IMG/VR virus record: IMGVR_UViG_3300027967_000093
Source: a virus
Length of the DNA: 64,000 nt
Reading direction: 5' to 3' (one strand)
Positions 41,017-43,884 of this stretch are shown piece by piece. The notes beneath the pieces were generated by a model that made no database searches, was not told the DNA's origin, and saw nothing but the letters and a program-made list of their open reading frames with translations. The translations under genes and the position numbers were made by a program. Positions within the stretch are counted from its first letter, which is position 1. Every line of letters begins with the position of its first letter.

Positions 41017-43884
41017 ATGTCAGATAATAAGGCATTACCGTTAAAGTTAAAAGACAGTGATGGTAATCTCCAACAGATAACTGCATCGGAAAAGAACTAT
41101 GTTGCTTACCTTGCGGGTCTCCAAACCGCACAAGCAGATAGTTCTGATGTAGGACTTCTTACACTCTCATCGGGTGGGAATCGTCTCATCGGTTCTCTAA
41201 CCGATACCTATTACCCTGAACCTGTTGGGACTCACCCATACAACCAAACATCTGTTGTTACCACAACAACAAACATGTATCAGATAAACGGTACTGTACT
41301 TGAAAATGACAGTGACTGGAGAAAACCAGTAGGTCATTATGATGGTAATGTTTATGAGATGTCAGAGACTGACTTAAATACTTTCGTTGATGACCTCAAT
41401 GGACGTATTGCATTATCAGACTATCCTGGCTCACTGAAATTATCTTCTACACGTCCAAGTGCAGACTATGATATTCTTATCCCGAGTGTACTGACCGACC
41501 AACGTGCAGATTCTTCTGGTTCTCCTTTTACTGTAAATGATTATAGTATCTGGCGCAGAACTAGTATGACCGCCCCCACATCTATTCGGGATGACCTGAA
41601 TGGTGTGAGTAGTATTGTTGGTATCAAAAGAAGTTTCGGTGACAGTGGTGACTACCAAGGTCTGACTAAACTTACTGATCGTCAAGTTCAAGTAACTATT
41701 GGTCAACGTGCAAAGACAAGACGTGCGATTGATAACAATGTCGGTTCATACGAATTAAGAACATCTTCTCAGGGTGCACCTGTTGTTGGTACTTGGAAGA
41801 ATGTTGGTGCAGCAGTAAATACTATTCGTCTTGTTGACGAACAGAACTATACGCGCACCCGCGTAAGTGCGTACACGCGTGACCGCAACTCTGCATATAC
41901 TCGTGTCAGTTCAAGAACAATCAATAGTTCCTTTGCGGGTAACTATATTGGTAATTATACAAGAGACTTTGCCGGTAACTATACAAGGGGATTCCTTGGT
42001 AATTATGTTGGTGATTTCACTGGTAACTATACTCGTGACTTTGCAGGTAATTATACAAGAGATGTACAAACTAACTTTGCGGGGGATTACGTAGGTAATT
42101 ACTCTCGTGGATTTATCGGAAACTATTCAAGAGATTTTGCAGGTGAATATAGTCGCAACTTCGTAGGTAACTTCCTTGGGGAATATACGAGAACCTCTAC
42201 AAGAGGAAGACCATCTGCATTTAGTAGAGTAAGAAGTTCTAACTATTCACGAAACTTTGCGGGTAATTACACTCGTGGATTTATTGGAGACTATGCGGGT
42301 AACTTCGTAGGGGAATATTTAAGAACCTCTACTCGCACTCGTACTTCTAATTATGCGCGTACCTCAACACGAATCCGAGAATCCGCGTATGTTAGAATAC
42401 GCACATCGATATATGCGGCCGACTATACTCGTACTCGTAATTCTAATTATACTAGAACCAGTACTCGTACTCGTAATTCTAACTATACTAGAACATCTAC
42501 TAGAACAAATGCGGCAGATTTCATCGGAAATTATATTCGATTAAGAACCTCTTCGTATACAAGAAATAGTACTAGAACACGTACATCTTCATATCTAAGA
42601 GGATTTACTGGAACTACTGATTATATTGGGAACTACTCTCGTACCGACTTTACCCGAATTAGAATAACTAATATCGAAGGACAAAACTTCTATTATACTG
42701 GTAACTATATCGGCCCAAGTCAGTCTTTCACTGGGAACTTCATAGGTACATCACAATCTGTTCGTTACTCTATGGCCGCAGTTGAGGTTGGTGTGTATGA
42801 TGATGAACGTTGGGTAAAAACCAATTACACTTCTTCCGGATATACAACATTCAGTGTATATTGGGGTAATGTTGAAGTGTATAATTCTGGAGTTCAACCA
42901 TTATATACTGACAGTACGGTGGCTGTTGCTGGTGGTTATGTTTACAGTAGACAAGGAGACCCCATCACTGGTGGCGGTGGTTCTGGGTTTAGTTACTCAA
43001 TATACAATGTAAATCGTAATATTGCTGGTAGTTATACGGGTAATTATATTACCACCCGACAGTCTGCGTTCAGTAGAGGTTTCACCGGAGACTTTACTGG
43101 TAATTATACTCGTAATGTTACCGATGACTATACCAGAACAAGAACTTCTAGTTATGCCGGAGACTTTGTAGGCGACTACACACGTGACTTCGCAGGTAAT
43201 TACGTAGGTGATTATACGCGTGACTTCGCAGGTAATTACATTGGCGACTACACTAGAGACTTTAGTGGTGATTATGCACGTGATTTCATAGGTAACTACA
43301 CTGGTGATTATACAAGAGATTTCGCAGGAAATTATGTTGGAGACTATACCCGAGTATCTACTCGAACATCTGCACGTACTAGATTCTCTGCATATGCTCG
43401 TACCCGTGTATCAAACTATTCACGTGACTTCATAGGAAACTACTCAAGAACTTTTGCAGGAGATTATATTGGTGATTATGCCCGTATTTCTACACGTACT
43501 CGAGTAAGTTCATATAGTCGTCTGAGAAATTCTGCATACACTAGAACAAGAACTTCTACATACACTGACAATTACGTTGGAGATTATGTTGGTAACTTCA
43601 TCGGTGAATATACGCGTACCAGAAACTCTGCGTTTACTCGTAATGACACCTTAGATTCTACTCGCACTAGAGTATCAACTTATACCAGAGGTAGAAACTC
43701 AGCCTATACCCGAGACTCTACTCGTTCACGTTCATCCAGTTATGTCGGAGAATATACAGGGAACTACTCTAGGGCGTTTGTCGGAAACTACTCAAGGTCT
43801 TTTGTAGGTGATTATATAGGTCAGACAATTGGTAACACAACTTACGCAGTAGAAACGTATACCTTGTATGTAAGAACTGCATAA
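41017..43884 (+). CDS. Self-complementary repeat (hairpin) fibre-like protein A, 955 aa
   Basis: ~278-aa N-domain, 63-tetrapeptide arm, ~150-aa centre, 63-tetrapeptide complementary arm, C-terminal [10 protein letters not shown]. Confidence 0.8.
   Translation: [955 protein letters not shown]
41851..43815 (+). repeat. Coding 12-nt-period degenerate repeat (xGNY/xRDF/xRTR/xSAY words)
   Basis: Tetrapeptide periodicity in frame with the ORF; arms 41851-42606 and 43060-43815, 756 nt each. Confidence 0.9.

Follow-up and report, generated by a model that had tools for sequence, protein, structure and literature searches.

We analysed a stretch of viral DNA of 64,000 nucleotides (nt), IMG/VR virus record IMGVR_UViG_3300027967_000093 (hereafter the window, whose positions are used throughout), and focused on a gene that we call gene A (41017..43884, plus strand). 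Its open reading frame (ORF) encodes a protein of 955 amino acids (aa), the putative hairpin fibre protein P0001, and is followed on the same strand by the ORF of a 1615-aa paralogue, gene B (43929..48776). The source phage is an uncultured, divergent T4-like myovirus, and gene A is located in its baseplate/tail-fibre module. Searches of Pfam, NCBIfam and PHROGs returned nothing useful for either gene.

The product of gene A begins with an N-terminal base domain (aa 1-278; 41017..41850), which was predicted by AlphaFold2 (AF2) with a predicted local distance difference test score (pLDDT) above 90 and whose last strand (aa 260-278, motif P..GTW...GA) starts the putative hairpin. It is followed by the N arm (aa 279-530; 41851..42606), 756 nt encoding 63 four-residue words. 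The distal part (aa 531-681; 42607..43059) comprises irregular words, a knob of ~70 aa with the motif VYWGNVEVY (roughly aa 595-665; nt 42799-43011) and the turn back, and small domains resembling this knob sit at the apex of homologues. The C arm (aa 682-933; 43060..43815) again holds 63 words in 756 nt and is the complement of the N arm in mirror order. At the end of the protein, a linker and a conserved C-terminal strand ([22 protein letters not shown], aa 934-955; 43816..43881), predicted with pLDDT 94-97, would close the base. All of these features are on the plus strand, and the boundaries, nucleotide lengths and word counts of the two arms were the same as those given in an earlier note on this DNA, which had been made from the sequence alone. 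The arms of both A and B are devoid of Lys, His, Cys, Met and Trp, leaving Arg as the sole basic residue, and the net charge per word pair is about +0.6 (arms 41851-43815 and 44721-48707).

In order to quantify the complementarity, the words were assigned to the classes G (xG[DNE][YF]), F (xRx[FY]), Y (xSx[YF]), R (xRxR) and S (xRx[STNDV]), and the N arm read forwards was compared with the C arm read backwards. The strict rule pairs G with R or S and F with Y, and an extended rule adds a recurring switch pair, x[TAQDNV]x[FY] opposite a G-word. At mirror register 0 the strict rule was met by 53 of the 63 word pairs of A, close to the figure of about 50 in the earlier note, and the extended rule by 56. 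All other registers gave fractions of at most 0.49 in the antiparallel and at most 0.41 in the parallel direction, while 20,000 shuffles of A gave 15.3 ± 3.3 pairs with a maximum of 30. When we scanned all anti-diagonals blindly in every frame, the top segment was exactly residues 279-530 against 682-933. The example quoted in the note, [24 protein letters not shown] against reversed VGDY AGNY TRDF TGDY IGNY ARDF, corresponds to rows 39-44 of our pair table. The exception it had reported as shared by both proteins, xADY opposite xG(D/N)Y, was likewise found in each of them, at row 47 in A and at both row 10 and row 106 in B.

The word rule could be reduced to a residue code. When A and B were pooled (366 observations) and position 4 of each word was compared with position 2 of its partner, Tyr was opposite Arg in 138 of 161 cases, Arg opposite Gly in 65 of 66, Ser opposite Gly in 32 of 32, and Phe opposite Ser, Thr or Gly in 79 of 102. 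This pattern suggests that positions 2 and 4 of both strands form one face of a ribbon, with Arg, Tyr and Phe against Gly and Ser, and that positions 1 and 3 (Thr, Val/Ala/Ile and Asn/Asp) would form the opposite face.

Here, we need to consider that such a pattern could be a by-product of nucleic-acid symmetry, namely an inverted DNA repeat or an mRNA hairpin, or of chance matching between low-complexity repeats. Since Thr and Arg codons can read as Gly- or Tyr-like codons on the opposite strand in another frame, we tested an antisense origin, and nucleic-acid symmetry was rejected. The reverse-complement identity of the arms was 31% at the mirror register and 20-34% at other offsets, A and B being alike. 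Inverted repeats measured only 14-29 nt and none was in the mirror register, and the antisense frames were full of stops. Because the DNA arms show background reverse-complementarity, the signal lies in the protein, and chance matching was excluded by the register controls and the shuffles described above. We therefore give this explanation almost no weight.

The same code was found in gene B, whose N arm (aa 265-744; 44721-46160) and C arm (aa 1114-1593; 47268-48707), both on the plus strand, contain 120 words each. At the register that joins the first N word to the last C word, the strict rule was met by 95 of 125 words, compared with 44 at the next best register, and the extended rule by 113 of 120. 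The segment between these tetrad stems (46161-47267) contains repeat units of 5, 6 and 10 residues (e.g. GNYTRTLYYV), and word complementarity is patchy there. As the note had described, A and B share an N-domain of about 270 aa (41% identity, E 2e-63) and an identical last strand ([10 protein letters not shown]), and their word orders differ, the same class being found at the same index at only 26 of 63 positions. When the arms of A and B were cross-paired in both ways, 32-33 of 63 words were complementary; the cognate arms gave 56 and 60 of 63. Since the word order is aperiodic and different between A and B, it would serve as a barcode for register and partner, by which slipped pairing and pairing with the paralogue would be disfavoured.

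We then examined the family to which these proteins belong. A search with the N-domain identified 316 clusters (50% identity level) with E ≤ 1e-3, whereas a stricter cutoff of 1e-30 left 129, and the ETYTLYV tail was carried by 106 family representatives. The first word begins 10 aa past an A[TS]x[TI] motif, the family anchor, and the tail pattern [ET]xYTLY[VC][RK]xx always lies 12 aa past the last word. The invariant residues of the N-domain are P255, G258, W260 and G264. Among the members of the Arg/Gly-code subfamily, complementarity is always best over the segment that reaches from the N anchor to the C anchor, and gap-free coded stems counted from both anchors range from 21 to 120 words, depending on the homologue. 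Mirror word complementarity was clear in about 11-25 Arg/Gly-code representatives. In nine more homologues, 14-18 of the first 20 anchored words were paired, compared with 2-11 in shifted registers.

The earlier note had proposed that complementarity is maintained independently in each gene, and three kinds of change in the family bear this out. First, a covariation table of 11 homologues by 33 anchored positions contained paired words in 299 of its 363 cells, and all positions showed at least two complementary pair types with both sides changing. Second, the flavours of the arms are exchanged between relatives. The N arm of P0012 starts in the Gly/Phe flavour and its C arm ends in the Arg/Ser flavour, while its sisters P0010 and P0013 show the reverse, and P0034 has its flavours flipped between arms in the same way as P0012. 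Third, insertions are matched. Compared with its closest homologue P0005, protein A carries 44 extra aa in the N arm, within aa 450-498 (42364..42510, plus strand), and another 44 in the C arm (aa 713-756; 43153..43284, plus strand), at mirror positions. Each of the two regions includes a 36-nt tandem duplication (42426-42494 and 43168-43253), and these duplications are mirror partners as well.

These changes also bear on the possibility that the arms do not touch each other but both lie along a third, periodic molecule, for example another fibre protein, a downstream gene product or a polysaccharide, which would act as a common template. Three conserved small genes always lie behind the fibre gene and could provide such a partner, and direct contact between the arms is deduced rather than taken from a structure. 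However, a common template would favour similar rather than complementary words at mirror positions, and the flavour swaps of P0012 and P0034 preserve complementarity yet alter what each arm offers to a partner. In addition, the word order differs in A, B and the homologues, so that each of them would need its own template. We consider this explanation very improbable.

The lengths of the arms were next compared across homologues, a tabulation that had been set by the note as a refutation test. In 82 representatives, the N- and C-arm lengths were correlated (Spearman 0.77), and the arms were equal within 8 aa in 38% of them, compared with 6% after permutation. The family also includes a mini-homologue, P0160 (476 aa), in which TRNS and TSDF words stand opposite xG[DN]F words and the arms are joined by a loop of only ~25-30 aa with no knob. 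P0160 and P0037, another member that is described below, come from metagenomes.

Structure prediction was performed with AF2 on A, using an alignment of 50 sequences. In the resulting model, aa 1-280 and 930-955 showed pLDDT values above 90, and the long strands 260-295 and 916-953 were mirror partners with i + j ~1212, which is the register of the word code. In the model of P0160, the tail again had a pLDDT above 90, and strands 240-271 and 441-474 were mirror partners. The packing of the C-terminal strand on the N-domain, which the note had proposed for modelling and had set as its other refutation test, was thus reproduced in two independent AF2 models, in which a long strand mirrors the last strand of the N-domain. 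The structural matches of the base extended from about residue 41-44 through the last residue, which places the tail within the modelled base domain. When the base was compared with beta-prisms (the MABP/MACPF C-terminal domain) using VIA-align, Z scores of 7.7 (8b6v), 6.8 (2qp2) and 6.1 (3tow) were obtained over about 115-120 residues at root-mean-square deviations of 3.6-4.0, and the model of A itself gave 6.3, 5.9 and 5.7; these scores are weak to middling, all being under a Z of about 8, the level described by the tool as common. Foldseek searches against PDB and BFVD gave nothing at E ≤ 0.001, a T4 gp37 fragment in BFVD having E 0.043 and a probability of 0.07. Only unnamed viral clusters were matched in the ESM Atlas, and phmmer and the family profile retrieved from the PDB sequences only a non-significant, low-complexity match to fusolin.

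Based on these observations, we suggest that gene A probably encodes a fold-back, and in all likelihood oligomeric, β fibre that carries a distal knob and belongs to the baseplate/tail-fibre module. The last strand of the N-domain (aa 260-278) would run outwards as the N arm, the small distal domain (about aa 595-665) would reverse the chain, and the C arm would return beside the N arm in antiparallel orientation and in register, the kth word of the N arm adjoining the kth word counted back from the C-arm end. The final strand would then pair with the last strand of the N-domain and close the base. The four-residue word code would set both register and partner, with the contact between position 4 of one word and position 2 of its partner as the core, made up of Tyr-Arg, Phe-Ser/Thr/Gly, and Arg or Ser against Gly. 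Arm length would change when one arm duplicates or loses words and the other then undergoes a matching change. In this model, the mirror complementarity would reflect physical side-by-side β pairing. By analogy with the T4 gp37 needle, the rod is probably an oligomer, with a trimer giving a six-stranded shaft, and both analogy and gene order suggest that it may be fixed to the baseplate by the base domain and carry a receptor-binding knob at its tip. With regard to the earlier idea of a hairpin fibre, the mirror-complementary arms and their matched lengths hold, as does, in the AF2 models, the packing of the tail on the base, while the physical lengths (about 85 and 200 nm in the note) rest on the assumption of fully extended strands, at 0.33 nm per residue. 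On that assumption, the coded arms of A would measure ~83 nm (252 aa x 0.33 nm), and B would measure about 158 nm when calculated from its 480-aa tetrad stems and up to roughly 220 nm when calculated from its half-length.

Several points weigh against this interpretation. Neither aa 287-924 of A nor the arms of P0160 reach a pLDDT of 50, and the pairing of the arms is deduced from sequence statistics rather than from a solved structure or from contacts in a model. An oligomeric state must be assumed, because a lone two-stranded ribbon of at least 80 nm would be floppy. The word classes were derived from the earlier reader's rule on these very proteins, so that the count for A is slightly favoured, a bias that is answered by the register controls and by the out-of-sample homologues. 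Furthermore, the pairing code was undetected in 53 distant members despite their length-matched arms. When distant members were tested by code-free methods, namely anchored mutual information and a generic rule of Gly opposite non-Gly, neither gave a signal, and only P0037 among those tested fell on the anchor diagonal with the generic rule. This protein uses another vocabulary, with xGTF words opposite E[ST]xF words, and its top anti-diagonal is the anchored one.

A further point concerns which chains are paired, since the sequence signal is alike for pairing within a chain and between chains. The arms could pair in mirror register with those of different chains, either in a domain-swapped oligomer or in a staggered head-to-tail polymer, and in the head-to-tail form, where the N arm lies with the C arm of the next chain, the product would be an open filament or a mesh rather than a closed hairpin. 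Besides fitting the complementarity equally well, contacts between chains would be expected in a trimeric six-stranded shaft, in which each N arm touches two C arms, one of them a neighbour's, and the Gly-Phe contact in the gp37 stem is made between subunits (PMC6957217). On the other hand, closure within one chain is favoured by the exact match in arm length and by connecting loops that can be as short as about 25-30 aa (P0160), and the AF2 monomers close the base with their own tail, which has a pLDDT above 90. If the oligomer were domain-swapped but closed, its overall geometry would not differ from that of the fold-back fibre. Taken together, we regard pairing between chains as unlikely, and the fold-back fibre is the reading that we compare with known proteins below.

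The closest likeness is to T4 gp37. Its collar domain D10 consists of residues 811-881 and 1010-1026, which flank an out-and-back needle; a Gly of its stem packs against a Phe of a neighbouring chain, and its collar fold recurs in gp10, gp11 and gp12 (PMC6957217). In both gp37 and the model for A, the chain exits a base, goes to the tip and returns, and the base is formed from two far-apart segments and closed by the C-terminus, although the out-and-back path of A comes from sequence covariation and the AF2 base strands rather than from a solved structure. In both, Gly of one stem strand is placed opposite an aromatic residue of another, and both genes belong to the baseplate/fibre module of a T4-like myovirus. 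The C-terminal ends are also similar, A ending in ...TYTLYVRTA and the T4 proteins in ...FNYIVRLA (gp37), ...VYRWIRIA (gp10) and ...FYHFERTA (gp11; [18 protein letters not shown]). However, the arms of A and B hold no histidine and thus none of the HxH iron sites that define the gp37 needle. The stems here have 252-480 or more residues per arm, while the gp37 needle is formed by roughly the last 130 residues, and gp37 has not been described as having its pairing written in aperiodic four-residue words that covary like RNA. Apart from the C-terminal motif, our searches detected no sequence or fold homology between the family and gp37, with hhalign against gp37 810-1026 giving E 0.14 and a probability of 0.4%, and Pfam searches with 56 family members gave no Collar or GP11 match.

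A more specific similarity was seen with the end of T4 gp11 (PDB 1EL6; [33 protein letters not shown]), where the family invariants P255, G258, W260 and G264 are matched at the same spacing, and the chains of both gp11 and A terminate in RTA (base motif 41794-41850, tail 43852-43881). This terminal RTA of A also resembles the [aromatic]x[aromatic]x[VI]RxA ends of T4 gp10 and gp37. Local alignment with the C-terminal hairpin of gp11 gave a score of 44, compared with 22 ± 4.2 for shuffled sequences (0 of 2000 as high). In VIA-align, residues 239..955 of the model were aligned with residues 64..219 of the gp11 chain, with 47 residues at 26% identity, and this alignment extended to the last residue of both chains; its Z of 2.7 is within noise. 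Comparisons with gp11 by hidden Markov model, Pfam and profile-profile methods were not significant, and the remaining N-domain is unlike gp11. We thus regard it as a good lead, but not as established, that the base derives from a terminal hairpin of the gp11/gp37 type into whose turn the arms and knob were inserted as one giant segment.

Antiparallel pairing of distant segments of one chain is also a property of RNA stems and of the arms of SMC/Rad50 proteins, which are antiparallel coiled-coil hairpins. With these, by analogy, the present arms further share compensatory changes, matched insertions and deletions, and stems that can be nested. They differ from RNA stems and coiled coils in that the units are four-residue words with a predicted β structure rather than bases or heptads, and from RNA stems in that several word classes, of putative contact chemistry, take the place of Watson-Crick pairs. 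The triple β-spiral of adenovirus and reovirus and the triple β-helix of T4 gp5 and gp12 are trimeric shafts of parallel one-way chains with a C-terminal knob. They resemble the present proteins in that short repeats specify a long, thin, β-rich shaft ending in a knob, but they show no mirror complementarity between the halves of a chain. To our knowledge, there is no other protein in which word-by-word complementarity is kept up between two arms of 250-480 residues, together with matched indels and covariation in the style of RNA, and our literature searches on the tail motif, tetrapeptide-repeat fibres, fold-back fibres and phage C48C1 returned no description of the family or of the pairing code. 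We class the proposed hairpin fibre as a variant of the fold-back idea known from T4 gp37, distinguished by a sequence-written code and an RNA-like evolution that our literature searches did not find described.

Nesting is exemplified by the only homologue found in the collection of phage records that we searched, a 3347-aa protein of phage C48C1 (Kyanoviridae, OQ984149.1, 11989-22032). In its inner stem (aa 877-1120 against 1545-1788), 60 of 61 words are complementary, and an outer stem (aa 580-851 against 2129-2400) encloses the inner one. The protein also has several separate knob-like domains, each between short word runs, and this organisation points to a branched, tree-like fibre.

The neighbourhood of gene A is that of a T4-like baseplate, with gp6-, gp7-, gp9/10- and gp8-like wedge genes upstream. 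The gp6 of this phage is 40% identical to that of C48C1, the closest genome, and about 35% identical to that of S-PM2. Also upstream of gene A lies a giant DUF4815 protein of 1963 aa (31972-37863), whose conserved counterparts in C48C1 (1661 aa) and contig L002 (1951 aa) occupy the equivalent place. It is followed by a gp5-like β-helix repeat protein of 967 aa (38099-41002), directly upstream of gene A, which showed a weak match to DUF2345 and a match to a PHROG annotated as 'baseplate hub subunit and tail lysozyme'. The C-terminal part of the 967-aa protein resembled the fibrinogen alpha/beta chain family weakly, with a score below the cutoff. The small genes mentioned above encode proteins of 154, 249 and 231 aa (48842..50716, plus strand) without any family match, and they share 69, 66 and 47% identity with those behind the C48C1 homologue; they are thus better conserved between the two phages (47-69%) than the fibre N-domain or gp6 (about 40%). 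The gene order is identical in C48C1 and in the independent 140-kb contig L002. These three genes are candidates for assembly factors, chaperones or adaptors.

With regard to its wider meaning, we see about an even chance that the arms represent a natural sequence-addressed β-pairing system, a protein counterpart of nucleic-acid hybridisation. If so, a small vocabulary of four-residue words would specify both the pairing partner and the register, fibre length could be tuned by matched gains and losses of words, and paralogous fibres would be kept from mispairing. Nested or branched stems could be built, as in the C48C1 homologue, and the code could be transferred to the design of long β rods made to a chosen length and branching pattern. 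If physical, the pairing would provide a rare natural rule set for long two- or six-stranded β assemblies. The evolutionary question is also raised of how duplications become fixed in pairs when their two sites lie far apart in the gene. Phage fibres set host range, and the fibres of most uncultured marine T4-like phages are unrecognisable by homology. In the 316 clusters of this family, all of them unannotated, the base, the stem length, the tip domain and even the branch points could be read from sequence.

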